64,000 bases of DNA from assembly GCA_013334575.1 (NCBI GenBank), contig JAAXXG010000001.1, positions 208,315 to 272,314 on the forward strand, given 5' to 3'. Below, one piece after another: positions 2,616-37,247 of the stretch. A program made the position numbers and the translations under genes. Each line of letters begins with the position of its first letter. Position 1 is the first letter of the stretch. The notes beneath the pieces were generated by a model, which saw nothing but the letters and a program-made list of their open reading frames with translations, did no database searches and had not been told where the DNA came from. This stretch comes from Candidatus Moraniibacteriota bacterium. Lineage in GTDB: Bacteria > Patescibacteriota > Minisyncoccia > Moranbacterales > UBA1568.

Positions 2616-3020
2616 CTATCGAAACGGTCGGTCCGCCACACCGAAATAAGCGAACCATTTCCGATAATTCGGCGTCGAATCCGAAAGACGATCTCCATCA
2701 TCGCGTACGCCCGAACCGTCCAATGTCTCGGACCCGAGCACGGAACCGGTATCGACGGAAACCACCTCCTCGTCCCCCTTCTTCATATCGAGTTTTTCCT
2801 TCGCTTCCCGCTCTTGGAACGGCTCCGTCGAATAGTACGCGATCTTTTCCTCGATGGTGCGGTTCTCGTTCCGGATCCTCTCGGCCTCCTGCCGCAGAGA
2901 GTCGACCTCGGACTCGATCCGCCTTGAACGTTGCATCTCCTTCCATCCGGAGGAAAGCATCGCAACGGTTCCCAATGCGAGCACGACGACCAGCAGTTTC
3001 GCGAACAAAGGTACCCGCAT
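2616..3020 (-). CDS. FtsB/DivIC-like septum formation initiator (TM + coiled coil)
   Basis: 134 aa with an N-terminal TM helix followed by a charged coiled-coil region (RIESEVDSLRQEAERIRNENRTIEEKIAYY). Confidence 0.45.
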   Translation of the reverse strand: MRVPLFAKLLVVVLALGTVAMLSSGWKEMQRSRRIESEVDSLRQEAERIRNENRTIEEKIAYYSTEPFQEREAKEKLDMKKGDEEVVSVDTGSVLGSETLDGSGVRDDGDRLSDSTPNYRKWFAYFGVADRPFR

Positions 3021-3035
3021 ATGCCAAAATCGCCG

Positions 3036-3149
3036 TTATCGGGAATAGAACACGGGTGCGAACAAGAACGCGACCATGGAGACGGCGACGATCGCGGAGG
3101 TGATTACCCAGAACAGGTAGAGCTTCTTGTGGCGCTTTCTGAACTCCAT
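3036..3149 (-). CDS. 37-aa small single-TM protein (MEFRKRHKKLYLFWVITSAIVAVSMVAFLFAPVFYSR), hypothetical
   Basis: Hand-translated minus-strand ORF below the 60-aa ORF-track cutoff. Basic N-terminus plus one hydrophobic helix. Sits in the gap between the T4CP-like gene and the ftsB-like gene. Confidence 0.25.
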   Translation of the reverse strand: MEFRKRHKKLYLFWVITSAIVAVSMVAFLFAPVFYSR

Positions 3150-3202
3150 ATGTTTCGCTCATGATACCAGAATTCCGACGTTTCCGGAACCCGGCCAAAA
3201 GA

Positions 3203-5278
3203 CTACGTCTCAGAAGAAGCGTCACCCCGGGACGGACGGTCCTGTCTCGTCGAACCGAGCAGATCGCGCACCGCGCCGAGGTCGGGCGCCGACCGCTCGC
3301 GGAGCGGACGGAACTTCTTCGGCGCGACAAGTGCTGCCCGGGAAAGCGAGATCGGAGCCTCTGCAGACACATAGCTTCTCGTTCCGGCCGGAGCCATCGG
3401 TCTTACGGGAGGCGCCGGGCGACGCGGCGCGACAGGACGGCTTGCGGACATCGTCGGCCGCTGACCCCCTTGCGGCCGCTCTTCCGGTTTCGCCTTCACG
3501 AGCGTGCGCTGATGATTCTTGAAACATTCCTTACAGTAAGTCGGACGTTTCCCGTCCGGCTGAAACGGGACGCGGATCTCCGACCCGCAGCTGTCGCAGA
3601 TCGCGGGATACATCGGACGGTCCTCGAAAGACGGCTTCGGGGGTTTGACGGGTTTCGTAGCCGCGGCAAGAAGCAGCTCCTCGTCCTCGTCCGGCACGAC
3701 GACCGGCTGCCGACGATGCAGCGGGACGGACTCCGTCACCTGTATCGGTTCTTCCGGCGACACTTTCTCGACCGCGTCTCGTCGACCGTCGTCATCCGAA
3801 ACGACGACGGAAGATGACATGGGAGAGAGCGGGGGCTCCGGCATCGCGACGGGAGCGGAGCTCATTACCGGAGCCACACGAGCAGGCGCCGACACGACCG
3901 GAGCCGAAACCGGAGACGGAGATACGGGCGCGGACACCTGTTCGGAAGGCAGGAGCCCCTTCTTCCGAAGCAGTTCGTTGCGTTCCTCTTCGGTCAGCAT
4001 TCCGCTCCACCGCCGTATCTTGTCCTCAACCTCCTTCTTCGAGGACGCATAGCGCTCACGCGAGATCCGGACGACCTTCTCCTCGTTTTCCCTCGTCTCC
4101 TCGAGTGAGATCGGCGGTAACACCGTCGCGGAGAACGCGTCTCCGGCGATGCCGTCGATCATGAGCTTGAGATAGATGTTGTACTTCGGCAGGTTCACGA
4201 TATCGTTCATCATGAAGACCGGCTCGAACTCCTTCTCGAGGACCTCGGCATCGGCAGCGCCGACGCGGAACGAGATAATCGTCCCGGCGTTTCCGAAGAT
4301 CGCGTCGGACACCTTCTCGTCGAGCTGCGCGATGTACTGGTTCGCAAGGATGAGATTGAGGTGGTATTTCCGGGCCTCGGAAAGGATGTTCGCGAAGGAT
4401 TCCGTCGCGAAGTTCTGGAACTCGTCGACGTAGAGGTAGAAGTCGTTTCGATCATCCTCGGGCATGTCGACACGCTCCATCGCGGCGAGCTGGATCTTCG
4501 TAATCATCATGGCCCCAATAAGGGCGCTCGCATCCTCGCCTATGCGCCCCTTCGAGAGGTTCATGATGAGGATCTTCCGGTTATCCATCACCTCGCGCAC
4601 GTCGAAGGACGACACCGTCTGACCGACGATGTTGCGGATGAGCGAGGTCGAGAGGAACTGACCGACCTTGTTCTGGATCGGCGAGATGACCTCCTGCAAC
4701 ACGCGGTCGTTCCATTTGGAGAATTCGTCCACCCAGAAAGCACGGACGACCGGATCGGAAACCTTGGCGACAACCCGTTCACGATAGTCCTTGTCGACCA
4801 GGATGCGAGTGACGCCGAGAAGCGTCGAACCGGGATACTCGAGCAGCGCGAGAATGGCGTTACGGAGGATGTACTCGAGCCGCGGACCCCACGAATCTGC
4901 CCAGAGCTTCTTGAACACGCCGACGAGACCCGATGCGACGAGATGCTGATACTCCGGATCGACCTTCTCCATCACGTTGAACGCGATCGGATACTCCTGG
5001 TCGGCCGGGTTGAAATAGATGACGTCGTTGATGCGTTCCGCGGGAATGGCCTTGATAAGCTTCTCGGCGGTATCGCCGTGCGGATCGATGAACGCGACGC
5101 CCTTCCCGTGCTTGATGTCCTGAATTGCCAGATTCTCGAGCAGGTTCGTCTTGCCCATACCGGTCTTGCCGATCACGTACATGTGACGGCGACGGTCGTC
5201 GGTCTTGATACCGAAAATCCGTTCCTGGTTCCGGAAGTTGGTCTTGGCGAAGAAACTGATTTCGTTCTGCTGCGGCAT
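3203..5278 (-). CDS. T4CP-like (TrwB/TraD/VirD4 family) P-loop ATPase with Pro-rich linker and C-terminal CxxC..CxxC zinc ribbon; no N-terminal TM anchor
   Basis: 691 aa. Walker A RRRHMYVIGKTGMGKTN followed by GVAFIDPHGD. Walker B FYLYVDEFQNF. Pattern closely resembles TrwB/TraD NTP-binding core. C-terminal AICDSCGSEIRVPFQPDGKRPTYCKECF. Low-complexity SAPV repeats. Confidence 0.75.
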   Translation of the reverse strand: MPQQNEISFFAKTNFRNQERIFGIKTDDRRRHMYVIGKTGMGKTNLLENLAIQDIKHGKGVAFIDPHGDTAEKLIKAIPAERINDVIYFNPADQEYPIAFNVMEKVDPEYQHLVASGLVGVFKKLWADSWGPRLEYILRNAILALLEYPGSTLLGVTRILVDKDYRERVVAKVSDPVVRAFWVDEFSKWNDRVLQEVISPIQNKVGQFLSTSLIRNIVGQTVSSFDVREVMDNRKILIMNLSKGRIGEDASALIGAMMITKIQLAAMERVDMPEDDRNDFYLYVDEFQNFATESFANILSEARKYHLNLILANQYIAQLDEKVSDAIFGNAGTIISFRVGAADAEVLEKEFEPVFMMNDIVNLPKYNIYLKLMIDGIAGDAFSATVLPPISLEETRENEEKVVRISRERYASSKKEVEDKIRRWSGMLTEEERNELLRKKGLLPSEQVSAPVSPSPVSAPVVSAPARVAPVMSSAPVAMPEPPLSPMSSSVVVSDDDGRRDAVEKVSPEEPIQVTESVPLHRRQPVVVPDEDEELLLAAATKPVKPPKPSFEDRPMYPAICDSCGSEIRVPFQPDGKRPTYCKECFKNHQRTLVKAKPEERPQGGQRPTMSASRPVAPRRPAPPVRPMAPAGTRSYVSAEAPISLSRAALVAPKKFRPLRERSAPDLGAVRDLLGSTRQDRPSRGDASSET

Positions 5279-5284
5279 AGGTTA

Positions 5285-6580
5285 TTAGTCCTCAAGAATA
5301 GGAAGGTTCGAAGGGGCCGACCCGCGCTTCGCTGAGACGCGAGTGAGCGCCGGCGCCATGACGGAAAGATCGGGCGGGTGAAAGATGGTCGCGAGCTCCT
5401 CGACGGAAAGCACGAACTGCTTGTCGGACGGGGTTCGGTCGCGGGTTCGGTACCGGGCATAGATACGACGCTGAAGAAAGCGCAGCCGCTCAGTCACGAA
5501 CAGATAGTCCGCCTGCGTCTTGGAAGCGCTCTCGGGCTTGAATCCGTTGAGGTTGTTATCCGAGAACTGCTTGAGGGCGCCGGTGAACATCGATACGAAC
5601 GTCTTCGTGAACCCCTCACGGAGCCCGAAATAGACCGCCCGCATCTTCACTCGGTACATCTGCTTCCCGATATTGCTCTCAAGCGCCTTCAACACCTCTT
5701 TCTCCCCCGGCGAAAGACGGAACTCGAGCGGCTGATCGCTTTTTTCCTCTTTCTTCGCCTTCTCGAATTCGGGAGTGGATACGAACGCCTTGAAGAGATT
5801 CCTGAGGATATCGGCGACATCTCCGAAAAACGCGGCGAGCGGTCCCTTCGATTCCTTCTTCGCCTTACCGAGGAAGACATCGATCGTCGCGCGACCCTTC
5901 TCCTTGTGCCAGCTATCCTTTTCGGGCGCGATGATAAGCTGCCACCAGAGATGCTGTCCCGGAGGAAGCTTCCCCATCAACTCTATGATGCTCGCCAGGG
6001 GATCGATCATCTTTCCGGTGACATCCTCCTCGAAGAACCGGTATGTCTTGATAGGATACAGATCCGGTTTCGTCAGCTCGAAATCCGAGCCCCACAGCTC
6101 GTACCGATCGTTCGGAATCATCTTCGGGGCGGACTCGACGTAATCGGGCACCTCGACGATTTCCAGATCGGGATACTGGGCGAAGAAGTTCGCCTCGACG
6201 AGGTTCCGGAAGACCGCCGGCGTCCGGACGTAGAAATGGACCGAACCGCCGTCGTTGGCGAATTCCAGACTGAACGCCGGAACAAACATGCCCTCGACGA
6301 ACGCCTCGTACGTATTATAGTTCTTGGCGACGCCGGCCATTCCCGAAAAGACCGACTCCATGAGTTTCGGACTTTTTTCAACCTCCCGAGGAGGGATGAT
6401 TTCGAGTAGGACGTACTTCACGCCGGATGCGTACAATCCCTGTGCGTGATCAAGCCAGATTTCGCGGAAAAGATGATAGAAGATCGGAGGAAGGACAAGA
6501 TACCACACCGCACCGAGAAGCGAGAACGCGTCTCCGACACTCCGATACAGGCTCGCGAAGGATGCAAGAAGGGCGTGCAT
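5285..6580 (-). CDS. Hypothetical membrane-anchored protein, co-transcribed with T4CP-like ATPase (7-nt gap)
   Basis: 431 aa. N-terminal hydrophobic segment (LLGAVWYLVLPPIFYHLF). Stop lies 7 nt before the ATPase start. No recognisable catalytic motifs. Confidence 0.6.
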   Translation of the reverse strand: MHALLASFASLYRSVGDAFSLLGAVWYLVLPPIFYHLFREIWLDHAQGLYASGVKYVLLEIIPPREVEKSPKLMESVFSGMAGVAKNYNTYEAFVEGMFVPAFSLEFANDGGSVHFYVRTPAVFRNLVEANFFAQYPDLEIVEVPDYVESAPKMIPNDRYELWGSDFELTKPDLYPIKTYRFFEEDVTGKMIDPLASIIELMGKLPPGQHLWWQLIIAPEKDSWHKEKGRATIDVFLGKAKKESKGPLAAFFGDVADILRNLFKAFVSTPEFEKAKKEEKSDQPLEFRLSPGEKEVLKALESNIGKQMYRVKMRAVYFGLREGFTKTFVSMFTGALKQFSDNNLNGFKPESASKTQADYLFVTERLRFLQRRIYARYRTRDRTPSDKQFVLSVEELATIFHPPDLSVMAPALTRVSAKRGSAPSNLPILED

Positions 6581-6676: not shown

Positions 6677-7741
6677 CTACTTCACCTTCACAGTATACCT
6701 GTCTTTCCCGACCTTGCCAAAGAAGGAATTCAGATTGATGACGATGGTCGATCGCTTCACGGTCCGGACCTTGAGCACTTCGTCGATGATCGCTTCCCGC
6801 GACATCGGCGACTTGGAACGGGAAAGGATCGCGGTGATAACGTCGCGAACGGTCCCCTTCTCGTATCCCCACTCGGCCAACGCATACAGACCGCGTCCTA
6901 CGAGAACGAACTTCTTATCCTTGATAAGCTCGTTATGGACGGTCTGCGGATGCGTAACCCGACCACGCTTCTGGAGACCGGCCTCGTCGATCCGTTTCGC
7001 GATCTCCTTGAAATGCATCGGCTCTCCGTGCATACGGAGAACAAGATAGGCCTTCTCCCGCGTCCCCCGCGGGGAGATCTCCCCGGATTCGGCAAGTCCC
7101 CATCGGCCGAACGGATTCCGTCTCACTACGGAAGAGACCGCGAGGTATCCGAAGAACGTCTTACGATCGACGCCTACCCCCCGTTTCTTGGCAGCAGCGA
7201 AGAACTCGTCCTCGGTCAGCACGCCCTCGGCATCCTTCACGACGGCGACAGCTGCCGAATGAACGTTCTCCCACTCGCCGAACGGGAATCCGGCAACCGC
7301 ATACGCGCGGACCCGGTTCTTTCCCTCGCGTTCCTCGCGCACGTTCCTCACGCACTCAAGGAAAAAGGAAAGGGCTCCGGCCTCCGCCTTCGAACCGCCG
7401 GCAAGATCGGCAAACAGGTCATCGACCGTCACGATACCGGAACGGTCCCGAACCGCCTTTTCGATCCGCTCCGCGACAGCTACGAACCCAGGATCTTCGC
7501 GACGCTGCTTCACGGACGTGAACGCCCCGGCAAGAATCTGGCGGACGCGCTCCCTCGTGATGCCGTACGTCTTCCCAATCGCCTCAAGCGTCTTCGGTTT
7601 CGCGCCGGAAAGTCCGAAACGGGCACGGACAATATCGTTCGTCCGAGGCAAAAACGACGCGGAAAATATCCCGAGAGCATCCGAAAACGGAGCATCCCCC
7701 TTCTCTGCCGCGGCAACGGCGCGGGATTTGACATTTGCCAT
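6677..7741 (-). CDS. DNA-binding protein with sigma-70 region-4-like HTH (N-term) and HARE-HTH/winged helix (C-term)
   Basis: TLEAIGKTYGITRERVRQIL resembles sigma70 r4.2. C-terminal HFKEIAKRID...KFVLVGRGLYALAEWGY matches the RpoE-delta/HARE-HTH pattern. Confidence 0.6.
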   Translation of the reverse strand: MANVKSRAVAAAEKGDAPFSDALGIFSASFLPRTNDIVRARFGLSGAKPKTLEAIGKTYGITRERVRQILAGAFTSVKQRREDPGFVAVAERIEKAVRDRSGIVTVDDLFADLAGGSKAEAGALSFFLECVRNVREEREGKNRVRAYAVAGFPFGEWENVHSAAVAVVKDAEGVLTEDEFFAAAKKRGVGVDRKTFFGYLAVSSVVRRNPFGRWGLAESGEISPRGTREKAYLVLRMHGEPMHFKEIAKRIDEAGLQKRGRVTHPQTVHNELIKDKKFVLVGRGLYALAEWGYEKGTVRDVITAILSRSKSPMSREAIIDEVLKVRTVKRSTIVINLNSFFGKVGKDRYTVKVK

Positions 7742-8104: not shown

Positions 8105-8956
8105 ATGAACACGGGGGATTATACCGACGACATCTCTCATGCCGCCGCCGATACGGCCATCAAGGTACAGGCGCTGCGCGACATGATCATGAACGCGGAA
8201 CGCACCATACAGGGAGCCAAGGCTATGCTCCTGCAGATCGAAGGAAAGAAGAAGACCGGCCGGCCGCGCAAGATCGAGGCCGGAGCGGATGAAGGCACCG
8301 TCGTTCAGGGAACGTTCGACGGCCAATCCATGCAGGGAGCGGACGGAAAACAGTATCCCGTCCCGGCAAACTACGCTTCGAAGTCGAAGCTCGTGGAAGG
8401 CGACATGCTCAAACTGACCATTACCCGGGACGGTTCGTTCATCTACAAGCAGATCGGTCCGGTGGAACGGAGGCACGTGATCGGGATCGTGACGCAGGAC
8501 GAACACGGAAACTTCGTCATCGTCGCCGACGGTCGCGGGTATCGCGTCCTGCTCGCTTCGGTAACCTATTTCAAGCTCGAACCGGGCGACGAGGTCGCCA
8601 TCCTGCTTCCGCGGGATCTTCAGGCGTCGTTCGCCGCCATCGAACACGTGCTTCAGAAGGGAGCGCTCGTTCCGGAAGAAACGCTCGATGCCGCCAGAAA
8701 CGCTACAAGCGCCGGAACCGCACGGATGGATACCTGGAAACAGGAACTCGGGCATCAGACCGAACCGGAAAGGACTGAAACCGTGCCGGAAACACCGACA
8801 ACACAGGTTCCCGTAAACGCGAACGAATCTTCGGACACGGGAGGCATCCTTGAAGAATGGATTCGCGAGATGGAGGCACTCGAAAAGGAGATCGCAGCCG
8901 AGGAAAATCGCACCGTGGATCAGGCGAATCAGAATATGCCCGCAAGCGGCCAGTAA
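8105..8956 (+). CDS. Hypothetical protein (283 aa), no recognisable domain
   Basis: Long ORF with own upstream AT-rich promoter-like region and AGGAGG-like RBS. Acidic Thr/Glu-rich C-terminus. Confidence 0.55.
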   Translation: MNTGDYTDDISHAAADTAIKVQALRDMIMNAERTIQGAKAMLLQIEGKKKTGRPRKIEAGADEGTVVQGTFDGQSMQGADGKQYPVPANYASKSKLVEGDMLKLTITRDGSFIYKQIGPVERRHVIGIVTQDEHGNFVIVADGRGYRVLLASVTYFKLEPGDEVAILLPRDLQASFAAIEHVLQKGALVPEETLDAARNATSAGTARMDTWKQELGHQTEPERTETVPETPTTQVPVNANESSDTGGILEEWIREMEALEKEIAAEENRTVDQANQNMPASGQ

Positions 8957-11553: not shown

Positions 11554-12120
11554 ATGAAATCGGCGATCATTCTGCATGGAATGCCTTCGAAAGATGAGTA
11601 CTTCGATCCGAAAAGTCCGGCACAATCAAACAAACACTGGTTGCCATGGATTCAACGACATCTCATCCTTCGCGGAATCCTCGCGCAAACACCGGAGATG
11701 CCCGACGCATATGCGCCGAATTACGAAAAATGGCGTACGCTGTTCGAACAGTTCGCGATAGACGAAGAAACGATGCTAATAGGTCATAGCTGCGGAGCCG
11801 GCTTTCTCGTCCGCTGGCTGAGTGAAAACAAAACGAAGGTCGGCAAGGTCGCGCTCGTGGCGCCCTGGCTCAATCTCGACCATGAGTACGACATTGACTT
11901 CTTTGATTTCGAAATCGACGAATCACTCGCGGAAAGAACGGATGGTGTCACGATATTCGTCTCATCGGACGATTACCAAACCATCATAGACAGCGTCGCG
12001 AAGATACGGAGTACCGTCAAATCCGCAGGTGTAAAGAAATTCACCGATCAGGGTCATTTCACTTTCAACGACATGAAGACGGTGGAATTTCCGGAATTAC
12101 TCGATACCCTGATTCGATAG
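11554..12120 (+). CDS. Alpha/beta hydrolase, RBBP9/YdeN-like serine hydrolase
   Basis: 188 aa. GHSCG nucleophile elbow. Size and motif order typical of the YdeN/RBBP9 family. Confidence 0.7.
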   Translation: MKSAIILHGMPSKDEYFDPKSPAQSNKHWLPWIQRHLILRGILAQTPEMPDAYAPNYEKWRTLFEQFAIDEETMLIGHSCGAGFLVRWLSENKTKVGKVALVAPWLNLDHEYDIDFFDFEIDESLAERTDGVTIFVSSDDYQTIIDSVAKIRSTVKSAGVKKFTDQGHFTFNDMKTVEFPELLDTLIR

Positions 12121-12156
12121 GAATTCCATCTTCGTCCCAGAGTCCAGACAACCATC

Positions 12157-12807
12157 ATGGAAAACGATTTGGTCAATTTACGGCAGATATACGAGAGGTT
12201 TTCGGTGCCGCCGAACCTCGCGGAGCATATGGAGACGGTGGCACAGGTCGTCCGCGTCATACGGGATCACTGGATCGGTGAGTCGGTCGACTGGGACTTC
12301 ATCATCCAGGCGGCACTGCTCCACGATATCGGAAACATAGTGAAGTTCGATTTCGAGGCTCACCCGGAATTCCTTGGAGACGAAGCAAAAAACGTCGAAT
12401 ACTGGAAGGAAGTACGGACGGACATCATTGCCCGGTACGGGAATGACGACCATCTGGCAAGCGGCAACATGCTCAGGGAAATCGGAGTCTCCGACGAGCT
12501 CCTTTCGACCATTCAGAACAAATCGTTCGCGAATGCCATCGACGTAGCCGCCGGGAACGATTGGAACGCGAAGATACTGCTGTACGCGGACATGCGGGTC
12601 ATGCCGCACGGAGTAACGTCTCTGGAGGAGCGTCTTGCCGATGTCCGACGCCGCATGCCGCAATACTACCGACGGCTGGATTTCGAGGAACTTCTCGATG
12701 CCGCTCGGGACATAGAGACCCAGATAACCGCACACCTCGACAAGGCCGTGACGGATATTACGTGGGTCGAAAATGAGGGTTCCGACGATAATTCGGTACG
12801 CATATGA
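12157..12807 (+). CDS. HD-domain metal-dependent phosphohydrolase
   Basis: H...HD motif (LAEHMETV ... ALLHDIGN) and downstream Asp residues. Confidence 0.75.
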   Translation: MENDLVNLRQIYERFSVPPNLAEHMETVAQVVRVIRDHWIGESVDWDFIIQAALLHDIGNIVKFDFEAHPEFLGDEAKNVEYWKEVRTDIIARYGNDDHLASGNMLREIGVSDELLSTIQNKSFANAIDVAAGNDWNAKILLYADMRVMPHGVTSLEERLADVRRRMPQYYRRLDFEELLDAARDIETQITAHLDKAVTDITWVENEGSDDNSVRI

Positions 12808-13133
12808 ACGACATGGAAGATAGGATCGAGGCGATGGAACGCGAGCTGGCCGCCATACGGGAGCGAAATGTCCGGGTGGAGGCGGACAAGGCCTGGGAAA
12901 CCAGTCCTGTACGCATCGTCTCAATCGTAGTCACGACCTACCTGATCGCCGCTGTTGTTCTCTCGGCCATCGGGAATGATTCCCCGTCCCGCAATGCGCT
13001 GATCCCAGCACTCGGATACCTGCTCTCGACCCTTTCCCTGGGTTTCGTACGGAACACCGTAAAGCAGATAACCTTAAAACACTTCCAACACCCCTCAAGG
13101 AAGATGAAAATCCGACAGAATCGTAATCAATAA
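12804..13133 (+). CDS. Small coiled-coil + 2-TM membrane protein, hypothetical (start overlaps HD gene stop, ATGA)
   Basis: 109 aa. 4-nt overlap with the upstream gene suggests translational coupling. Hydrophobic segments IVSIVVTTYLIAAVVLSAIG and LIPALGYLLSTLSLGF. Confidence 0.45.
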   Translation: MNDMEDRIEAMERELAAIRERNVRVEADKAWETSPVRIVSIVVTTYLIAAVVLSAIGNDSPSRNALIPALGYLLSTLSLGFVRNTVKQITLKHFQHPSRKMKIRQNRNQ

Positions 13134-13198
13134 CAAGATTGCTCGATTTAAAATATTTTGGCTTTTATTGGCTATTTTTCGTATAAATCCCTGCAGGT

Positions 13199-13226
13199 AT
13201 TGACAAATTCATCAAGTCATGTATAA
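13199..13226 (+). promoter_or_regulatory. Consensus sigma70 promoter (TTGACA-16-TATAAT) with no downstream ORF
   Basis: Exact TTGACA at 13199-13204 and TATAAT at 13221-13226 within an AT-rich island. Next + strand gene is over 1.6 kb away (the IS). Confidence 0.5.
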
Positions 13227-13555
13227 TAGGGACCAGATAGGGGTTTCTGACAATATACAGCCTTGTGGCTCGTTGTCTCACCTATATCTTTGTTCTCTGG
13301 TGTTAGATTTTCGTTATCCTCGAAGATAACGTTGGCCCTTCCCGATAGTCTCTTGTGTTTTTCGGCTCAAGATGGATTCAGCCGAGTAACACTGGAAGGG
13401 ATTGAATGAATCCAAAAACGTGGGACGTCAAAGGTCGATGTTTCCACGAGAGAAAAGACCTGGGATTTCCTCAATTGGAAATCTGACGTGGCGTGAATCC
13501 TATATGGTTTCGCGTCACTTTTCTTTTTCTCAGGCCTTGCAACTTCTCCGAAACA

Positions 13556-13596
13556 TCCGAAAAACATGAAAGCCTCGGCGTTACGCCCGAGGCTTT
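13556..13596 (-). terminator. Rho-independent terminator (agcctcgg...ccgaggct hairpin), serves minus-strand APH-like gene, possibly bidirectional
   Basis: 8-bp GC-rich stem. Minus-strand reading is followed by tgtttttcgg. Confidence 0.6.
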
Positions 13597-13602
13597 CTTC
13601 GT

Positions 13603-14529
13603 TCATTCGATTCCATTCCTGATAAGCCGTACCATGAGCTGGATCTTCGCATCACGGTCCTTTGCTGGAATATATTCGGCGCTATGCTTGAGCAGGTCCC
13701 ATCCGAGCGCTCCTATCAGCCGGAATGCCAGAACGGCATTCACTTCATCCGACGCATAGTCGCCGAGATATCCAAGAAGAGGCTGTCGCACCGTCTCGTA
13801 CGTCCGTTCCGAATCCCCCACCGAAAGTAACAGGAAATCGAAGGCTCGCAACAGGTCGTAGTAAGCCGGCGCTATACGCGGAACCGCCTCTAGATCAAGA
13901 AGATACGGCTTCCCACCGCCTTCCGGAAGAATGACATGATCGCCGATGACGTTCCCGTGTACATAGCCGAACCGTCCGGGTCCGTCCGAAAGATGTGCGA
14001 TCCGATCCGAAAGACCCCTCACTTCCTCGAACGACAGGAATCCCGCGTCGACGATCGGCCTGGACCAGAGGCTTAGTCGGGAAAGCATCCATTTATTCCC
14101 TTCCGCGGAGGCATCGGGCATCCCTTTCTCCTGTACCAGCGCATCGACGACACGACGGTACGACTCCGATATTTCCCAACATACGGAAAGGTACCGTTCC
14201 GGATCGGAATCGGCGAGCATATTGAGCGACTCGCCGGCTATCTCTTCGAGAAGGACCCATCCCTCACCCTCGTCCAGTACGACAGGAACGAGAAACGGAA
14301 GGACTCCTTCAATCCGCTTAGCAAGCGCGAACAAACAGACCTGCGATTCGGATATCCTTCCTGTCTTGAGAACGGCCCTCGCGCCGGAATCGTTCACGAT
14401 AACACGCGAGACGTTCTCCTTTCCTCGGAAAAACCCTGCCTCGACGAGCGTCAGTCCCTTCTCCCGAAGGACAAGATCGCGATCCGCCGACGGCATATCC
14501 TGCTCACTACCTGCATTGGTCGCTCTCAT
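13603..14529 (-). CDS. Aminoglycoside/choline-kinase-like phosphotransferase (APH family)
   Basis: Brenner motif HGNVIGDHVIL and LLDLE (APH catalytic loop / DxD). Start chosen at internal Met (MRATNAG) because the upstream extension runs into the AT-rich intergenic region. Confidence 0.7.
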   Translation of the reverse strand: MRATNAGSEQDMPSADRDLVLREKGLTLVEAGFFRGKENVSRVIVNDSGARAVLKTGRISESQVCLFALAKRIEGVLPFLVPVVLDEGEGWVLLEEIAGESLNMLADSDPERYLSVCWEISESYRRVVDALVQEKGMPDASAEGNKWMLSRLSLWSRPIVDAGFLSFEEVRGLSDRIAHLSDGPGRFGYVHGNVIGDHVILPEGGGKPYLLDLEAVPRIAPAYYDLLRAFDFLLLSVGDSERTYETVRQPLLGYLGDYASDEVNAVLAFRLIGALGWDLLKHSAEYIPAKDRDAKIQLMVRLIRNGIE

Positions 14530-14858
14530 ATGCAGCAAAAAGGAAACTGGTTGGTGCAAAAGCCGAACACGAAGAGCGGCCCGACACGCCAGAGAAATAA
14601 TATCATATCGCATGATGATTCGCGTTTTGTTTTTAAAATAACAGTCCAAAGCCGAAAAATACGTCCGCCACCAGGTTTAGTGAAGTGACAAACGTATATT
14701 CTCAAATGAGGCTTTTATTCCTCTCTGGTCGTTCCCCGTTTCCCGTGAAATTATGGCTTTAAAAAAACATCAATCCTCCTGTCTTAGCTTTACAGAATAA
14801 TAAATCACTTTGTTTATTATATATCATTTTAAAAAAAGTGTCAATCTTCTTTGGTAAT

Positions 14859-15875
14859 GTGTACACACATATGGCGGTTCTGCTAGGCTCCGAGGTCCAT
14901 CCCTCATCCTGGCTCATATGTCCGTCCATATGCCGAAAACGATACAGGAAGAGCGGTTGAGATGGGTCCTGCCCATCGTGGGAAAGGAGGTGAGACTCTG
15001 TGATATCGCGAAAGTCTGTCCTCACGGGAAACGGACCCTGGAACGATGGGTCGCGGCATATCGGAGGGGCGGCAAGGAAGCGCTGATTCCCCGATCGACC
15101 CGACCGAAGACCTCACCGTATGAGACGCCGATCCATATCAAGGAACAAGTGATATCGCTCCGAAAGAAGACCGGGCTCTGCGCGAGGAAGCTGTCGTGGA
15201 AATTGGGAAAGGAAGGGGTCGCGATACACGGGCGGGTGGTCGGGAAGATCCTGAAGCAGGAAGGCCTCGTCCGGACGTATCGGGTCAGGAAGGTGAAGAC
15301 GAAGTACGTGAAGATGCCGCTTCAGCCGGGAGAACTCATGGAAATCGACGTGAAGTATGTGCCCGAAAGAATAGGTGAGAAGGCGTATTTCCAGTATACG
15401 GCCATCGATTGCTCCTCGAGGTGGCGATATCTGCTCGCATACGAGGAGATGAATATCGGCAACTCGATACGGTTCCTGGAATCGGTCATATCCGTCTTCC
15501 CGCACCGCATACGGTCCGTGAAGACCGACAACGGGTCGATCTTCACCAACTCCTACCTCGGGACGAACAAACGGAGCGACATGACCGTGAAGACGATCCA
15601 CGCGTTCGATATCTTCTGCCGGGACAATGGGATCATCCACTACCTGATCGATCCCGGGAAACCCGCCCAGAACGGGAAGGTCGAACGGAGCCACCGGGAG
15701 GACCAGGAGAAGTTCTATGAGTGCAATGTCTTCGTCTCGTTCGAGGATTTGCAAACGAAGCTCAAAACGTGGAATATGTACTACAACGATCTGGAACACT
15801 GCGGATTGAACGGAAAGAGTCCGAACGAATTTCTGAAAGAGTTCGAGTTAATCAATCCGCCAAATGTGTGTACCT
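14859..15875 (+). mobile_element. IS481-family insertion sequence (about 1.0 kb) with 17-bp imperfect terminal inverted repeats
   Basis: Left IR GTACACACATATGGCGG (14861-14877). Right IR CCGCCAAATGTGTGTAC (15857-15873), 16/17 match as reverse complement. Single DDE transposase ORF fills the element. Inserted in an AT-rich intergenic region. Confidence 0.75.
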
Positions 15876-15877
15876 AG
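14918..15877 (+). CDS. IS481-family DDE transposase (N-terminal HTH + rve integrase core)
   Basis: 319 aa. HTH region (RLCDIAKVCPHGKRTLERWV). Integrase core with D (MEIDVKY), D (KTDNGSIF) and E (QNGKVERSHRE) spacing. Confidence 0.85.
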   Translation: MSVHMPKTIQEERLRWVLPIVGKEVRLCDIAKVCPHGKRTLERWVAAYRRGGKEALIPRSTRPKTSPYETPIHIKEQVISLRKKTGLCARKLSWKLGKEGVAIHGRVVGKILKQEGLVRTYRVRKVKTKYVKMPLQPGELMEIDVKYVPERIGEKAYFQYTAIDCSSRWRYLLAYEEMNIGNSIRFLESVISVFPHRIRSVKTDNGSIFTNSYLGTNKRSDMTVKTIHAFDIFCRDNGIIHYLIDPGKPAQNGKVERSHREDQEKFYECNVFVSFEDLQTKLKTWNMYYNDLEHCGLNGKSPNEFLKEFELINPPNVCT

Positions 15878-15908
15878 GACATCGTGATTCATATCGGAAC
15901 GGGATATA

Positions 15909-16589
15909 ATGAAAATACAGCATCGGAACGACATGGATCTTCTGGAACTTCTCCGCCTCGTCTTCGGCACCGACGCGAACGCCGACCTCAACCGGTCGAC
16001 GATCTGGACCTTCGTCCTCGTCGTCGTCGCCTATCTCCAGTTCCGACGGGCGAACCACATCTCGAGCGCCGACTTCATCCATCGGCTCAAGAACGATTTC
16101 TTCGGTAAGGAGACGCGCGAGCTCTTCTTTCTCTTCGAGAAGGATTACCTGAGGTTCGATGCGGAATCGGAAGTGTTCACGCTGGTACGGATTGACAGGC
16201 GGACCCGCGAAGAACTCGGAATCACCCGGAAATTCTACACGATCTACGAGGTGGACGACTTCATCCTCGGCGACGTGTACGACCTCGGACTATTCGAACA
16301 GAAACACATCGTCGACATAGACATGGTCTACGAGGAATTCGGATACTATGTCGAAACGATATATGCTAACAAGGCGATCAGGTTCTATATCGACAACCAG
16401 CGTCGCGAAACCAAGCATCGCGCCGTCTATGACAAGCTGGACTACATAGGCCTCAAGTGCCGACTCTACGGCGACTCTAAACGAAAAAAACGCTCGCTCC
16501 TCCGATGGCGGATACGGACCTGCTTCCAGGAGGCACGGCTCAGACGGATAGAACGCATACTCAGCGCTATCGGTATAAGCGAAAAATGA
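15909..16589 (+). CDS. Hypothetical protein (226 aa) immediately downstream of IS right end
   Basis: Long ORF with no recognisable motifs. Start uncertain (ATG at 15909 or MDLLELL at 15933). Confidence 0.45.
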   Translation: MKIQHRNDMDLLELLRLVFGTDANADLNRSTIWTFVLVVVAYLQFRRANHISSADFIHRLKNDFFGKETRELFFLFEKDYLRFDAESEVFTLVRIDRRTREELGITRKFYTIYEVDDFILGDVYDLGLFEQKHIVDIDMVYEEFGYYVETIYANKAIRFYIDNQRRETKHRAVYDKLDYIGLKCRLYGDSKRKKRSLLRWRIRTCFQEARLRRIERILSAIGISEK

Positions 16590-17029: not shown

Positions 17030-18274
17030 TCATTTCTTCGGGGAAAATATGGCGTCCCATGCCGCCTCGTCGTCGCAGGAAAACCGGTCGTCCGGCGTAT
17101 AGAACCGGGCCGACGGACCGACGCATCCGCCATTGGCCACGTTCAGCCGGGCCAGGTACGGAATCAGGAATCCGACTCCCTTCGAATTGAAGTACGCGTG
17201 CAGGCGCGCCGTCGTCTCGTGACGAGCCTTCTCGTCCATCCTGGTAAAAACGCTCATGTCGTCGCCGATTTTTCCGCTCCAGTCGTAATGGACGAAGACG
17301 TTTTTAGCCTTGGTCCGGTACCGGTCGTTCCACAAGAGCGCCCAGCACCAATCCCCGGGCTTTTTCCACCACCGGGAGAAGCATGCTCCATCCTCGACCG
17401 TCCCGTCGGCCTTGAGTCCGACGCCGCCTTCGATGAAATCGAAGTTCGAGAGGTACGCCTCGTCGGTAATCTCGTTCGTCTGCGCGCCCACGTAGATCTT
17501 CATGCCGTGATATGCGGCGTACTCGCGCATCTCGGCAATGACGCCCGAAATCGGCGACTTCGAATGATCCGGCGTATCCTGCAGATACACCTGCCCAAAC
17601 ATGAAGACTTGCACGCCGCGATCGATCGCGCGCCGCGTAATATAGCGCAGATACGTCTGATATTCCTTACTCGGAAGATAGGGCTTACAGGTATGCTCCC
17701 CCCAGAAGTTCTTGGAACCGGGCCGGCACATGCGGTCGAAATCGAAATCACGGTTCTCGAAGGGGTAGAAGTAGTTCGCCTTGGTATCGATCGCCTCGGC
17801 AAGAAACATTCCGACCGTAAATCCGCTTCGAAGATCCTTCAGGTTCTCGTCGATATCCTTGAAATCCGGAGGAGCAAGCCAGGTTTCGATCGCCCGGTGA
17901 AGATAGTAACACTTCGAATCGTTGATAAGCTTCATCGTCTTACCATCACCGGGAAAGTCTCCGTTCAGAAGCCCGTCCGCGACGCATCCTCTGGTTTTCA
18001 TAAGGTCCATCGAAGGGTCCGCCGGAGGCGGTCCCAGCTCCTCGCCGAGAAGCCCTGTCACCTTGATCGGTTCCCCATCCGCATCTGTCGGCAGCGGAAC
18101 GGTATTCCCGGAAGATCCATCCGAATCGGATCCTCCGACAGTCATGTCCGCCTCGTCGGCAGCGCCGTTTCGATCAGAAAAGAACCGAAAAAAGGCATAC
18201 GACGAAACAACGACGACGAGAACCGCCGCGGATACGGCCAAAACGACTTTTTTGGGGACCGGGTGACGATACAT
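17030..18274 (-). CDS. Membrane-anchored exported protein, possible glycoside-hydrolase-like fold, hypothetical
   Basis: Start set at MYRHPVPKK followed by TM VVLAVSAAVLVVVVSS. Trp/Cys-rich extracytoplasmic domain. Annotation of the fold is a guess. Confidence 0.5.
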   Translation of the reverse strand: MYRHPVPKKVVLAVSAAVLVVVVSSYAFFRFFSDRNGAADEADMTVGGSDSDGSSGNTVPLPTDADGEPIKVTGLLGEELGPPPADPSMDLMKTRGCVADGLLNGDFPGDGKTMKLINDSKCYYLHRAIETWLAPPDFKDIDENLKDLRSGFTVGMFLAEAIDTKANYFYPFENRDFDFDRMCRPGSKNFWGEHTCKPYLPSKEYQTYLRYITRRAIDRGVQVFMFGQVYLQDTPDHSKSPISGVIAEMREYAAYHGMKIYVGAQTNEITDEAYLSNFDFIEGGVGLKADGTVEDGACFSRWWKKPGDWCWALLWNDRYRTKAKNVFVHYDWSGKIGDDMSVFTRMDEKARHETTARLHAYFNSKGVGFLIPYLARLNVANGGCVGPSARFYTPDDRFSCDDEAAWDAIFSPKK

Positions 18275-18353
18275 AGCGCTACCAGTATAACAGAAAACGG
18301 CCTCCTCGGTTTTCACCGGGAAGCCGTCGGCGGACCTGATGCCGAATATCCCC

Positions 18354-19016
18354 TTATTCTTCGACGGCCTTTCCCGCCGAATTCCCACGGCGAGATTCGT
18401 TCCGTTCCCGAAGAAGATGGTATACGCCCGGCAGGACCGAAATGACGATGATCGCAAGGACGATCGGCAACAGATAATGATCGATGTCCGGAATGGATGC
18501 GCCGAGGAAATAGCCGAGGAACGTGAGTCCTGCAGCCCAGATGACCGCGCCGATGACATTGTAAAGCATGAACTCGGAATACCCCATCCTCGCAACCCCG
18601 GCAAGGATCGCCGCGAACGTACGCACGACCGGAATGAACCGCGCGATCATGACCGTCTTGCCCCCGTACCGATTATAGAATCCTTCGGTCCGCACGACAT
18701 GCTCCTTTCGGAAGAACATGGAATCCTCCCGGGAGAAGAGCTTCGTACCGACACGACGTCCGAACTCGTACCCTGCCATGTTTCCGGCGACAGCGGCCAC
18801 GAACAGGACGAATGCCAGCAGTGCCGGATGAAAGAATCCCTGTGACGCCAGGAATCCCGCGACGAAGATGAGACTGTCCCCGGGAAGGAAGAACCCGAGA
18901 AAAAGCCCCGTCTCGGCAAAGACGATTCCGAACAATCCGACATATCCGACCGTCTTGATCACTTCGACCAGATCGACTCCGAAATATTCCATAGGTATAT
19001 CTTTATAATCACCCAT
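18354..19016 (-). CDS. DedA/SNARE-associated (VTT domain) membrane protein
   Basis: Characteristic DedA core (GLFLGFFLPGDSLIFVAGFLA ... FIPVVRTFAAILAG). Confidence 0.8.
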   Translation of the reverse strand: MGDYKDIPMEYFGVDLVEVIKTVGYVGLFGIVFAETGLFLGFFLPGDSLIFVAGFLASQGFFHPALLAFVLFVAAVAGNMAGYEFGRRVGTKLFSREDSMFFRKEHVVRTEGFYNRYGGKTVMIARFIPVVRTFAAILAGVARMGYSEFMLYNVIGAVIWAAGLTFLGYFLGASIPDIDHYLLPIVLAIIVISVLPGVYHLLRERNESRRGNSAGKAVEE

Positions 19017-34724: not shown

Positions 34725-37247
34725 TTATTCGCTGCCCCGACTCGAGAAGACCGCTCCATAGTACGCGTCCGTCGAGAGCGTTGCGGAGAACCCGTATCCG
34801 TCGCGATCCATCGAAAGTCCGTCGCTCTTCCAATCCGCGACGTATCCACCCGGAACCGAAAGCCTCGAACGGAGCGAGACGCCGTCGGTGCCGGACTGTT
34901 TCTGAAACAAGACGGAATACGAAGCGGGTTCGTCGGTGTCCGGACGTACCGAAAACGGAAGCCGGTACGTGTATTCCACCGTCACGCTCTCTCCGGGACT
35001 CACGTAGACCCAGTTCCCGAAGACGGTCTTTCCGGACTCCTCCGAAATCCTCGTCCCCCCCTTGTCCGTGACCGTCCCCGACTCTTCCCGGACGACGTCC
35101 TCGTCCCTCCGGAATCCGAGCGCATCGTAATCGAGCGGAGGTTTCGTGACTTCGAACGTCTGCCCGGACGCGGAAACGAGTTCGGATCCCTTCGGAACGT
35201 AGACGCGAAGATAATCGGAGTTCACCCGATTGAACCAGTCGTACGGGGTATTTCCCCCGGTATGTTTCCTCGTGATCCTGACCGTGTCAAGTACCGAGCC
35301 GTCGGCCTGGACCGCGGCCATATGCTCGACGGACTCCCGGATGACCGCGTCGGTCTTGTACCCATTGAGGTTGGTATGTACCACGCTCAGATAATCGCGA
35401 GGCGTCTCGAGCAATCGTCCGGACCAGCCGGCACCGTCGATAAGCGCCTCCACGTCCGGATTCGCCGAATAGAGGAGTACCTGTTTCCCGTTCAGCGACG
35501 ACGAAAGCGTTTCCGCGAGCGCGGCGAACCCGGAAGCGCTCCGAACCGAGAATATGCGGTCGAGCAGGATGGGAGCGAGGTCGGCAAGGATCTTCTTCGG
35601 CTGATTGAGTTCACGATCATATTTCTCCTCCACCTGCTCCTGGACGATCTCGAGGAAATTGTCCGCATCGACCGTCACGCCGTATTCCGGCATGTCGACC
35701 GGTCCGGTCAGACGAAGCAGCTCGCGGATGACGTCCGGCGTAAGCGTGACGACCCCGTCGACGGTCGGCCCGCCGGTCTTCTCGTAGAAAAACATCGCCT
35801 TCCGCGCCGACGTCGGGAAATCCGGCCACCAGTTGCTGTCGTGTAGGCTCCATGCGGCGCTCACCTTCTGGATCGGCGCCGGCGGCACGAAATTCTCACT
35901 CAGCTGTCCGTCGGGATTGAAGATGCCGTCCACGAAGAACTTCCGGATATGACCGCCATCAACCTTGAGGAGTCCGTACGTCCCGATAAAACCGCCCGTC
36001 GGACGAAGTTCGGCATTGTTCTGAAACAGGAACAGATAGAGCCGGGGACCGTTCGCACCAAGCAACTCACGGACAAGATATGAATTCCGGTTGAACCCCT
36101 GAAGCGCCGCCAGAACCGCCGGCAACCGCTCCCGGACGGAAAGGAACTGCTCCCGCTGCGCTTCTGGAACATCTTCCGGCCGCACGCGGTCGAATGCTTC
36201 CCGGGCTGCGGCGATATCGTCCGCCGCCGAAACGGACTCCTTCTCGGCCTCGTCGACGATATCGAGGAACGAGGTCTCCGTTCCTGCCCCGGAAGACGCC
36301 GACGGAACGAGCGCAAGCATCCTGCTCAGGGAAGCTCCGGCAGCGGAAAGATGCCTCGCCCCCTCGAGCATTGCTTGTCCGGAAGCGGCCTTTGAGAATC
36401 CCGGAACGGCACCTATCGTCCTCAGGAATACGTTCCCGGCGGTTCCAATCGTCGAAGAGGTCTCGGTAAACATCCTGCTCGCCTCCTCGAACTTCGCCGC
36501 GGAAGACTCGAAATCCGCATGGGAGAGATTATCGACAGCGTCGGTCGCCAGCGAGACGCCCGCGACGCTTCCCTTGATAACCGAATCCTTGAGCGAGAAC
36601 AACCGATCGACGGACCAGATGCCGCCAACCAGAACGGTCACGAAGACGAGGGCCAGCGACAATACCCCGGAGAACCGTATCGCAGGAACGGCCTGCAACC
36701 GGAACCCGGAAATTATATGGAACGCACCCCGAAAGCGATCGACCATTGGACCGATCAAATCGGAAAGAGTCGCCTTGCCGGATAATACTCCGCGCGACTC
36801 GTCATGATATGCCTCACTTCCCAACTCCGTATCGTTCCGATCGGAAACGGGGCCGTCCGTATCCGTATCGAACGACCCGTCCGCGGATTCGCGAAAACCG
36901 TCCGCCGGGCCGTCGGAGACGGTGTCCCATTCCGATCCGTCCGCCACCTCGTATCCGGGTACGTACCATTCATCCGATTCCACCGCCGCAAACGGACGAT
37001 ACGGGGCGTCGCAATCGGCACCAGCCGTTTCGAGCGGCCGGTTTTCCGGACCATGATCCGTTCGCGACGTCCCGACCGATCCGATCCGATTCCAATCAAG
37101 ATCGCCCGACCGGTCGACCGGACGGACATCGAACATCTGCGGTATGATATTGTTCTTCGGATCCCGTCGTTCCATATCCCTCCGCTCCCTTATCTGTCCA
37201 AGGCTTCCGCGTAAGTCCGCAACGTCTCCTCGGCCATCCGATTCCAA
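34725..37247 (-). CDS. DUF4012-domain cell-envelope protein (N-terminal TM, large extracytoplasmic domain)
   Basis: Hallmark DUF4012 motif [16 protein letters not shown]. Acidic N-terminal region then TM ([16 protein letters not shown]). Confidence 0.75.

Follow-up and report, generated by a model that had tools for sequence, protein, structure and literature searches.

We analysed a stretch of 64,000 nucleotides (nt) from a Candidatus Moraniibacteriota bacterium (GenBank assembly GCA_013334575.1, contig JAAXXG010000001.1, positions 208,315 to 272,314; hereafter the window), in which two adjacent genes encode a P-loop ATPase of 691 amino acids (aa) resembling type IV coupling proteins (T4CPs) and a 431-aa membrane protein of the family DUF8128 (PF26449). 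The pair is the split form of a protein with VirB4 architecture and a VirD4/TrwB-like motor, the DUF8128 partner contributing the membrane anchor and a domain that resembles the N-terminal domain (NTD) of VirB4. On balance, we lean towards viewing the two proteins as halves of one membrane-tethered P-loop translocase that works independently of type IV secretion systems (T4SSs) and probably moves DNA. The module is a near-universal, vertically inherited and slowly evolving core gene set of Patescibacteria, unlinked to T4SS genes. The two genes and their parts lie at the following positions of the window:

3203-5278, minus strand: ATPase gene, T4CP-like and anchor-less, 691 aa (open reading frame (ORF) list, Pfam, PDB sequence search, hhalign)
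4094-5278, minus strand: ATPase motor core, residues 1-395, a TrwB-type nucleotide-binding domain with a putative all-alpha-domain region (Pfam, alignment)
5147-5170, minus strand: Walker A motif GKTGMGKT at residues 37-44, the same in all 32 homologues aligned
4415-4438, minus strand: Walker B motif YLYVDEFQ at residues 281-288, the same in all 32 homologues aligned
3968-4093, minus strand: charged helical segment that follows the core and is conserved (NEEKVxRxSRERYxxxxxEVEDKIRRWSGMLT), residues 396-437
3620-3967, minus strand: low-complexity linker rich in Pro, Val, Ser and Ala, residues 438-553, varying in length and sequence between homologues
3509-3619, minus strand: zinc ribbon CxxC-x17-CxxC, residues 554-590 (PF23477 zf_Tbcl_2 / TIGR04272)
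3206-3508, minus strand: C-terminal arm, a basic Pro/Arg-rich stretch (residues 591-635) and a conserved C-terminal motif (residues 636-675)
5285-6580, minus strand: DUF8128 partner gene, 431 aa (ORF list, homologue annotation)
6467-6526, minus strand: single N-terminal transmembrane (TM) helix of DUF8128, about residues 19-38
5336-6421, minus strand: cytoplasmic alpha+beta domain of DUF8128, about residues 54-415 (~360 aa), with a predicted VirB4-NTD-like fold
5288-5335, minus strand: C-terminal tail of DUF8128 with the near-invariant motif APxNLP[IFV] (alignments)

Split and fused forms

Fused relatives of the pair occur in phages. The 825-aa gp156 of Bacillus phage G holds both halves in one polypeptide, its residues 15-321 matching the DUF8128 profile (hhalign 98.4%, E 8.7e-15) and its residues 377-755 the ATPase profile (hhalign 99.9%, E 5e-33), and phrog_5156 (824 positions, function unknown) covers the same two parts, with DUF8128 at 26-312 (E 1.7e-9) and the ATPase at 407-818 (E 1.8e-62). 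The 913-aa gp151 of the SPO1-like phage Shanette is a distant fused relative. Because a fused version exists, reading the two genes of the window as a split protein is correct. An earlier prediction made from the letters of the window alone (the original prediction) had suggested a split coupling protein, which holds as regards the split but not as regards the partner, proposed there in place of the missing T4CP anchors and predicted here to carry a VirB4-NTD-like domain of about 360 aa.

The phage proteins (gp156/phrog_5156, Shanette gp151 and its counterpart in phage JL) share both modules of the pair, arranged in its order, but are single polypeptides lacking the N-terminal TM helix and the zinc ribbon, and they sit beside a VirB4-like ATPase in phage G or, in Shanette (L096, region 2747-6314), between a partition gene before and a Replic_Relax (PF13814) gene after. 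The VirB4-like ATPase is gp155 (CD1110 family, 174 bits), encoded immediately upstream of gp156 (both within L095, 2220-6362), with no other recognisable T4SS gene in the stretch viewed. Overall, a search of phage genomes with the ATPase core returned 48 records, mostly from Bacillus phages, and in a Microcystis phage an ATPase relative adjoins a ParA-like gene. With DUF8128, tblastn against phage genomes gave no match and a scan of IMG/VR with the family alignment gave one truncated match only. In annotations, the 913-aa proteins of SPO1-like phages frequently carry the erroneous name 'lipid A export MsbA'.

For Southlakia (Saccharimonadia), we draw throughout on the domain coordinates, annotations and transposon sequencing (Tn-seq) calls of Wang et al. 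(2023; PMC10633639). SEML1_0293 (921 aa) has PF10412 at 402-719 within a P-loop domain at 361-795 and, by these coordinates, appears to be a fused form. It shares TrwB_AAD_bind, TraG-D_C and DUF87 with the ATPase of the window and, as for the module there, a Sigma70_r4+HARE-HTH gene comes immediately before it, but it differs in its length and fused appearance and has been found experimentally to be non-essential in co-culture. The gene also carries a 1/1 flag in two unlabelled Tn-seq columns, which we take to be Patescibacteria family flags. Its upstream neighbour SEML1_0294 (349 aa; Sigma70_r4 27-72, HARE-HTH 225-283), mis-named RpoS, is essential although the ATPase gene that follows it is not. 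Southlakia also has a second T4CP-like paralogue, SEML1_0142 (1019 aa, P-loop 381-800), which is essential, has FtsK 2IUT as its closest ECOD template and follows a small gene, SEML1_0141, that is also essential.

The motor and its DUF8128 partner

By sequence comparison, the motor core is TrwB/VirD4-like, and closer to these proteins than to VirB4, FtsK or HerA. In Pfam, TrwB_AAD_bind (PF10412) scores 45.7 bits (cut-off 20.5; profile positions 11-310) and TraG-D_C 29.2 bits (cut-off 22); DUF87 is marginal (25.5 bits, cut-off 23.2) and confined to residues 30-96 around the P-loop, HerA_C has an E-value of 0.062, and there was no Pfam FtsK match. TrwB was the best match of a PDB sequence search (7e-7), with DotL at 1.6e-5 and HerA at 0.17-0.66. 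When a 32-sequence family profile was compared by hhalign, TrwB of R388 gave 95.9% (E 5.9e-9, 269 columns), the alignment pairing query residues 20-323 with TrwB 109-393 and running through the all-alpha-domain region; the corresponding values were 4.9% for TrwK/VirB4, 7.2% over 58 columns for Escherichia coli FtsK, 6% for pSK41 TrsK and 66%, at the P-loop only, for pSK41 TrsE. The T4CP affinity claimed in the original prediction is thus borne out, both in the profile searches it had named (TrwB_AAD_bind, TraG-D_C and FtsK/HerA, of which the first two are above cut-off) and in the comparison with HerA and FtsK that it had offered as a test. The ATPase nevertheless falls below every curated NCBIfam T4CP cut-off (TraD, CD1115, TrbC and others), the best being SXT_TraD (56.3 bits against 366) and the remainder reaching at most 38 bits against cut-offs of at least 250; the VirB4-type model TIGR00929 gave 21 bits against 643.

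Compared with TrwB, VirD4 and TraD (PF10412, PF02534, PF12696), the P-loop domain is alike in its alignment to TrwB and in passing the Pfam thresholds, but the protein as a whole is not: it has no N-terminal TM domain of its own, the anchor residing on DUF8128, a separate protein; it has a VirB4-NTD-like domain as its partner, split or fused, and carries a zinc ribbon in its C-terminal part; it has no relaxase or T4SS nearby and fails the NCBIfam equivalog cut-offs; and it is chromosomal, near-universal within one phylum and very slowly evolving. FtsK/SpoIIIE and HerA are ring translocases of the superfamily that also includes the motor, and FtsK is similarly built from membrane anchor, linker, motor and small DNA-binding domain, but the sequence similarity to both is weak. 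As for HerA membership, the partner is not NurA-like in the fold search or in Pfam scans of family members.

The remaining parts of the ATPase largely match their earlier description. The 691-aa ORF contains all of the TrwB/TraD/VirD4-type motifs that had been quoted, namely RRRHMYVIGKTGMGKTN (the Walker A stretch, residues 29-45), FIDPHGD and YLYVDEFQNF (the Walker B stretch, residues 281-290), and many further core residues are invariant in the 32-homologue alignment. The reported lack of N-terminal TM anchors is confirmed for the protein as a whole, which has no TM-like segment anywhere (maximum Kyte-Doolittle 19-residue score, KD19, 1.26). The linker has the stated Pro/Ala/Val/Ser bias (P21/V19/S16/A11 in 116 residues), but the spacing of the zinc ribbon is x17 and not x18. 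Its cysteines (C561, C564, C582 and C585) are invariant in the same alignment, and it scores 55.3 bits with PF23477 zf_Tbcl_2 (cut-off 27) and 56.6 bits with TIGR04272 (cut-off 36); within this zinc-ribbon family, zinc binding has been demonstrated for Methanosarcina members only. The zinc ribbon is a lineage-variable accessory, found in Moranbacteria and some other lineages and missing in two of the retrieved loci (L085 and L088), and lineages without it have Arg/Lys/Ser/Pro-rich tails in its place. Beyond it, the basic stretch has a net charge of +8 and is followed by the motif YVSxEAPxSLSxxxxxxPKKFxPLxxRxxxDLxxVR; C-terminal tails are basic in relatives with and without the ribbon.

The window's partner is assigned to DUF8128 through its homologues, all of which carry a precomputed PF26449 match. 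A DUF8128 profile search of 1.84 billion cluster representatives returned 2,719 representatives at E<=1e-3, each standing for a 50%-identity cluster, and 918 at E<=1e-30. The original prediction had placed the 431-aa protein, with a hydrophobic N-terminal segment, 7 nt upstream of the ATPase gene; the ORF and the segment are confirmed, while the distance is 6 nt. Although only moderately hydrophobic in the window orthologue (KD19 1.48), the segment is a clear TM helix in the family at large, with a median KD19 of 1.98 and values of at least 1.6 in 105 of 124 members. Lys and Arg together number 0.39 in the 15 residues before the helix and 2.38 in the 15 after it (124 members), and because of this positive-inside bias the helix is probably oriented N-out/C-in, with the large domain in the cytoplasm.

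Structure prediction suggests that this partner is more than a missing T4CP anchor, combining the TM helix with a cytoplasmic VirB4-NTD-like domain. AlphaFold2 modelling of DUF8128 from 30 sequences was weak (predicted local distance difference test, pLDDT, 64.7), while 124 sequences gave a pLDDT of 91.0 and a predicted TM-score (pTM) of 0.85. In Foldseek searches of the PDB with both models, the top 12-14 matches were all full-length TrwK/VirB4 chains from R388 cryogenic electron microscopy (cryo-EM), with probabilities of 0.95-1.0 and E-values of 5e-5 to 4e-3, and no VirB4 structure limited to the C-terminal domain and no TrwB, FtsK or HerA structure was among the matches listed. The R388 cryo-EM study built TrwK residues 15-400 de novo as the N-terminal domain, around which VirB3 wraps and to which VirB8 tails also bind; because the matched R388 entries are those that contain this domain, the predicted fold probably corresponds to it. 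A search of BFVD matched gp156 (E 3.8e-18, TM-score 0.51), the 913-aa protein of phage JL (E 9.2e-16) and gp155 (E 1e-5), the last providing a second tie of the DUF8128 fold to VirB4-type proteins. Other searches were uninformative: Pfam scans of 40 DUF8128 family members showed no consistent match, the partner had none in a profile search of the PDB, and a separate PDB sequence search with a C-terminal segment of 155 aa returned noise only.

Since the partner as modelled carries a VirB4-NTD-like domain, the whole would have the architecture of VirB4 with a VirD4-like motor. Like VirB4/TrwK, it presents an N-terminal alpha+beta domain of about 360-385 aa and then a P-loop domain of about 420 aa, and, among the PDB matches listed, the DUF8128 model matches only those TrwK chains that include the NTD, together with VirB4-like gp155 in BFVD. 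It departs from VirB4/TrwK in a motor that is not VirB4-like by sequence, in the absence of significant profile similarity between DUF8128 and either TrwK or TrsD, and in a TM helix of its own, where VirB4/TrwK relies on VirB3. TrsD and TrsE of pGO1/pSK41 offer a precedent for a separate VirB4-NTD-like gene beside an ATPase gene, TrsD being described in PMC12102498 as a remote homologue of the N-terminal part of VirB4 that adjoins Patescibacteria virB4.

The C-terminal tail of DUF8128 is a candidate docking peptide for the ATPase. Across 124 sequences P423 and P427 are invariant and L426 nearly so, and in the 30-sequence Moranbacteria alignment A422, P423, N425, L426 and P427 are all invariant. 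Long DUF8128 variants (P0362, P0364, P0376, P0383, P0353 and P0307) have a C-terminal extension with an acidic FDYDxDxFExRFA motif, and then a second APxNLPF tail.

Conservation and genomic context

We retrieved 80 GTDB loci through DUF8128, all of Moranbacteria type because both peptide patterns used were lineage-specific, and reached 7 further loci in distant lineages (Parcubacteria, Azambacteria, Magasanikbacteria and unclassified Patescibacteria) with a profile of representatives about 30% identical, followed by contig look-up. The ATPase gene lies directly downstream of DUF8128 in 79 of the 80 Moranbacteria loci, the sole exception being a contig end, and wherever upstream sequence exists DUF8128 is immediately preceded by a Sigma70_r4+HARE-HTH gene. 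All three genes occur together in 6 of the 7 distant loci. The question raised in the original prediction of whether the pair is always together is therefore answered largely in the affirmative, with the HARE-HTH gene as a regular companion, and the label 'orphan' no longer applies, as the pair is not rare and T4CP homologues are found in 2,918 of 3,035 Patescibacteria genomes (PMC12102498). The gap between DUF8128 and the ATPase gene is mostly 2-12 nt, reaching 65 and 307 nt. Identity across the distant lineages is 57-68% for the ATPase core, 30-39% for DUF8128 and 28-36% for the HARE-HTH protein. The ATPase of the window is 100% identical to a protein from a Candidatus Moranbacteria metagenome-assembled genome (contig of 274,643 bp). 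Many of the GTDB species-representative records with a Moranbacteria-type locus (L011, L015, L018, L019 and others) are titled 'uncultured Bdellovibrionales bacterium' and are probably mislabelled metagenome-assembled genomes.

Outside the triad the flanks vary, with DnaX/GtrA on one side and DivIC/PpiC/HtrA on the other in Moranbacteria loci. SecD (with a rotamase domain in some) and SecF precede the triad in three distant loci, and one other distant locus lies among Mur and DivIC genes. No T4SS gene or relaxase was found in the fetched flanks of related loci, nor any T4SS component or relaxase among the ORFs of at least 180 aa judged real in the 64-kb window, in line with the earlier claim that the window holds no relaxase, VirB4 or other T4SS gene. 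The window is otherwise ordinary chromosome, encoding HtrA, PpiC, DivIC, DnaX, tRNA-Gln, SMC, LepA, MurJ, a penicillin-binding protein (PBP), a Mur ligase, serine hydroxymethyltransferase and rhamnose-pathway genes, and the GC content of the two genes equals that of their surroundings. Three features adjoin the pair or lie at its junction:

5279-5293, minus strand: junction of the two genes, with GAGGA at 5289-5293, stop codon TAA at 5285-5287, a spacer and the ATPase ATG at 5276-5278
6692-6720, minus strand: TTGGCA-17-TATACT, resembling a promoter by consensus match only, ahead of the DUF8128 gene and within reach of the HARE-HTH gene, whose 3' end it overlaps
6677-7741, minus strand: conserved upstream neighbour encoding a 354-aa Sigma70_r4 (32-78) + HARE-HTH (229-291) protein

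The junction reads GAGGAC TAA taacct ATG, so that the Shine-Dalgarno-like GAGGA of the ATPase gene is inside the end of the DUF8128 gene and the 6-nt spacer taacct (5279-5284) separates stop from start, a layout with which translational coupling is plausibly compatible. In the 354-aa neighbour, sigma-70 region 4 is N-terminal and the HARE-HTH, of the RNA polymerase delta type, is near the C-terminus; the gene recurs in this position from Moranbacteria to Paceibacteria-type lineages and is a possible functional part of the module.

Elsewhere in the window, an insertion-sequence-type integrase (HTH_32 + rve + rve_3) at 14918-15877 (plus strand) is the only mobile-element signature seen, and the stretch around it (12000-16000) is lower in GC (0.51-0.52 versus about 0.58). 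A 283-aa protein at 8105-8956 (plus strand) has no Pfam or NCBIfam match and is 54-72% identical at the same position across Moranbacteria loci, divergent from the HARE-HTH gene and beside GtrA and DnaX. An 840-aa DUF4012 protein (34725-37247, minus strand) adjoins MurJ and glycosyltransferase genes, and a 524-aa ORF (17030-18604, minus strand) has no Pfam match.

Mechanism, alternatives and significance

In the mechanism that we favour, DUF8128 would supply an N-out/C-in TM helix, a cytoplasmic domain of VirB4-NTD type and the APxNLP tail, and the downstream protein would supply the motor, a TrwB-type nucleotide-binding domain with an all-alpha domain that is presumably hexameric and bears a flexible C-terminal arm composed of the basic stretch and, in this lineage, the zinc ribbon. 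The halves would be made at roughly 1:1 from tightly coupled genes and would come together on the cytoplasmic side of the membrane, restoring what other lineages make as one polypeptide of about 825-920 aa, with the conserved tail of DUF8128 and the invariant N-terminus of the ATPase possibly forming an interface that stands in for the covalent junction. Such a module would need no conjugative relaxase and, most likely, no T4SS. It would use ATP to move DNA at the membrane, where nucleic acid might be held by the basic tail and zinc ribbon; DNA is the probable substrate because of the relation to T4CPs, the basic tails and the phage relatives that lie beside Replic_Relax, partition and ParA-like genes. 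Soluble T4CP motors brought to the membrane by a separate protein are familiar from pIP501 TraJ with the membrane protein TraI and from Legionella DotL-DotM-DotN, where DotN is a zinc-binding accessory. Those belong to complete T4SSs, unlike the pair described here, and no search gave homology of DUF8128 to pIP501 TraI or to the DotM/DotN partners, although none was aimed at them.

A concrete role might be that of the missing cytoplasmic motor of DNA uptake, an analogue of ComFA working with ComEC. ComFA, the cytoplasmic membrane-associated ATPase that pulls DNA through ComEC in Gram-positive competence, also has a zinc-binding motif. The likeness would be one of function only, as ComFA is a DEAD-box helicase of unrelated fold. 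Southlakia is competent and has ComEC and DprA, and a ComFA-like role would fit because SEML1_0293 is dispensable, as ComEC and DprA are, and because no ComFA is annotated there (PMC10633639). More broadly, and with clearly less assurance, we entertain the possibility that the pair, together with its fused orthologues, represents a third and hitherto overlooked lineage of T4SS-type ATPases, vertically inherited in nearly all Patescibacteria and T4SS-independent, which joins a VirB4-type NTD to a VirD4-type motor and for which a ComFA-like motor at ComEC is one possible role.

Several observations weigh against the reading of the pair as a DNA translocase with VirB4 architecture. The likeness of DUF8128 to the VirB4 NTD is structural only, with low TM-scores to TrwK (0.29-0.37); hhalign comparisons of DUF8128 with TrwK and with TrsD were insignificant, although the best local segment fell on TrwK 186-233 in both runs; and the fold-search output did not give the aligned TrwK residues, so that the assignment of the match to the NTD is one that we infer. 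Equating the N-terminal 360 aa of SEML1_0293 with DUF8128 likewise draws on domain coordinates and not on sequence. The zinc ribbon is not universal, and the recurrent neighbours are export and envelope genes (SecDF, PpiC, HtrA, DivIC and Mur) rather than DNA-handling genes. A neighbourhood link to ComEC was rejected, ComEC occurring near the module in 1 of 91 loci (L085). One Magasanikbacteria locus (L092, on a 6.9-kb contig, 795-2243) has DUF8128 without an adjacent ATPase gene; it is the only uncoupled case seen, also has no HARE-HTH gene upstream, and lies on so short a contig that the ATPase may be elsewhere in the genome. The physical interaction of the halves, the hexamer, the substrate and the physiological role are themselves inferred.

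Among other explanations, the pair could be a genuine coupling protein of a Patescibacteria T4SS encoded away from virB4, with the partner docking the motor on VirB3/VirB6/VirB8-like subunits as VirB4 docks, and the motor feeding protein or DNA into that channel. The motor is indeed T4CP-like, the VirB4 NTD, whose fold the partner is predicted to have, binds VirB3 and VirB8 tails, T4CP genes are often far from virB4 (PMC12102498), and the fused form of phage G adjoins a VirB4-like ATPase. We nonetheless regard this as unlikely, since only 148 of the 5,713 Patescibacteria T4CP homologues are near virB4 (PMC12102498), no T4SS gene is present in the window or the fetched flanks, and SEML1_0293 is dispensable (PMC10633639) whereas the T4SS genes of Southlakia are essential. 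The neighbourhood might instead suggest that the pair powers the export or quality control of proteins, or of some other envelope substrate that is not DNA, acting with Sec accessory and foldase genes: SecD, often fused to a rotamase, and SecF immediately precede the triad in three distant lineages, Moranbacteria have PpiC and HtrA downstream of it, and some T4CPs of T4SS effector systems handle proteins only. Against this, housekeeping synteny can be inherited gene order without a functional link, the flanks differ in L086, L093 and L094, and nucleic acid is indicated by the basic tail, by the zinc ribbon and by phage relatives near Replic_Relax and partition genes, leaving protein export improbable.

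Slimmer still is the chance of an FtsK-like, division-linked chromosome translocase, anchored at the septum by the partner and using the zinc ribbon in the role of the FtsK gamma domain. DivIC is directly downstream in Moranbacteria and close in L094, beside Mur and PBP genes, and a motor with a long linker and a small domain of DNA-binding type recalls FtsK; many loci, though, have no adjacent DivIC, the hhalign similarity to FtsK is low, and Southlakia has a canonical FtsK (4TM, alpha, motor and gamma) that is essential while the T4CP-like orthologue is not (PMC10633639). Replacement of FtsK was rejected for that reason, and the division-linked role that the original prediction had allowed is disfavoured. 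We give next to no weight to a mobile-element remnant or anti-phage defence module (for example, MADS-like), for which there are relatives in phages, a PADLOC mad8 match (64.5 bits) and weak HerA matches for the ATPase, and an MzaA-like sigma region-4 match in PADLOC for the upstream gene. The locus is single and syntenic across Moranbacteria with the same triad in distant classes, equals its surroundings in GC, flanks the core genes DnaX, tRNA-Gln, DivIC, PpiC and HtrA, and has no other MADS or MZA component matched among its neighbours; its ATPase, at 57-68% identity across classes, also differs from fast-evolving defence genes. Both the defence system and the mobile-element remnant were rejected on account of this core synteny.

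The ATPase family itself has already been noticed in print. Quinonero-Coronel et al. (2025) reported 5,713 VirD4-type T4CP homologues in Patescibacteria and concluded that they 'may have been exapted' and that exaptation 'cannot be ruled out' (PMC12102498); term searches of the main text of that study returned nothing on a DUF8128-type partner, on its fold or on how split and fused forms relate. In the literature searched, we did not find the identity of the partner, the relation between split and fused forms or the phage relatives.

Patescibacteria account for much of bacterial diversity. Small as their genomes are, T4CP-like ATPases unlinked to their T4SS are retained in about 96% of these bacteria, going by the counts in PMC12102498. 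Given a VirB4-NTD-like partner, split or fused, the annotation of these ATPases should change, as they are not plain coupling proteins. DUF8128, a family of about 2,700 clusters at 50% identity, gains a predicted fold and a probable role, and is now connected with uncharacterised Bacillus phage proteins. These findings bear on the divergence of VirB4 and VirD4, and SEML1_0293 of Southlakia provides a handle in the only genetically tractable system. If the family is indeed a third lineage, it may preserve an intermediate between VirB4 and VirD4 in its architecture, and it could have a role in transformation or nucleotide scavenging.

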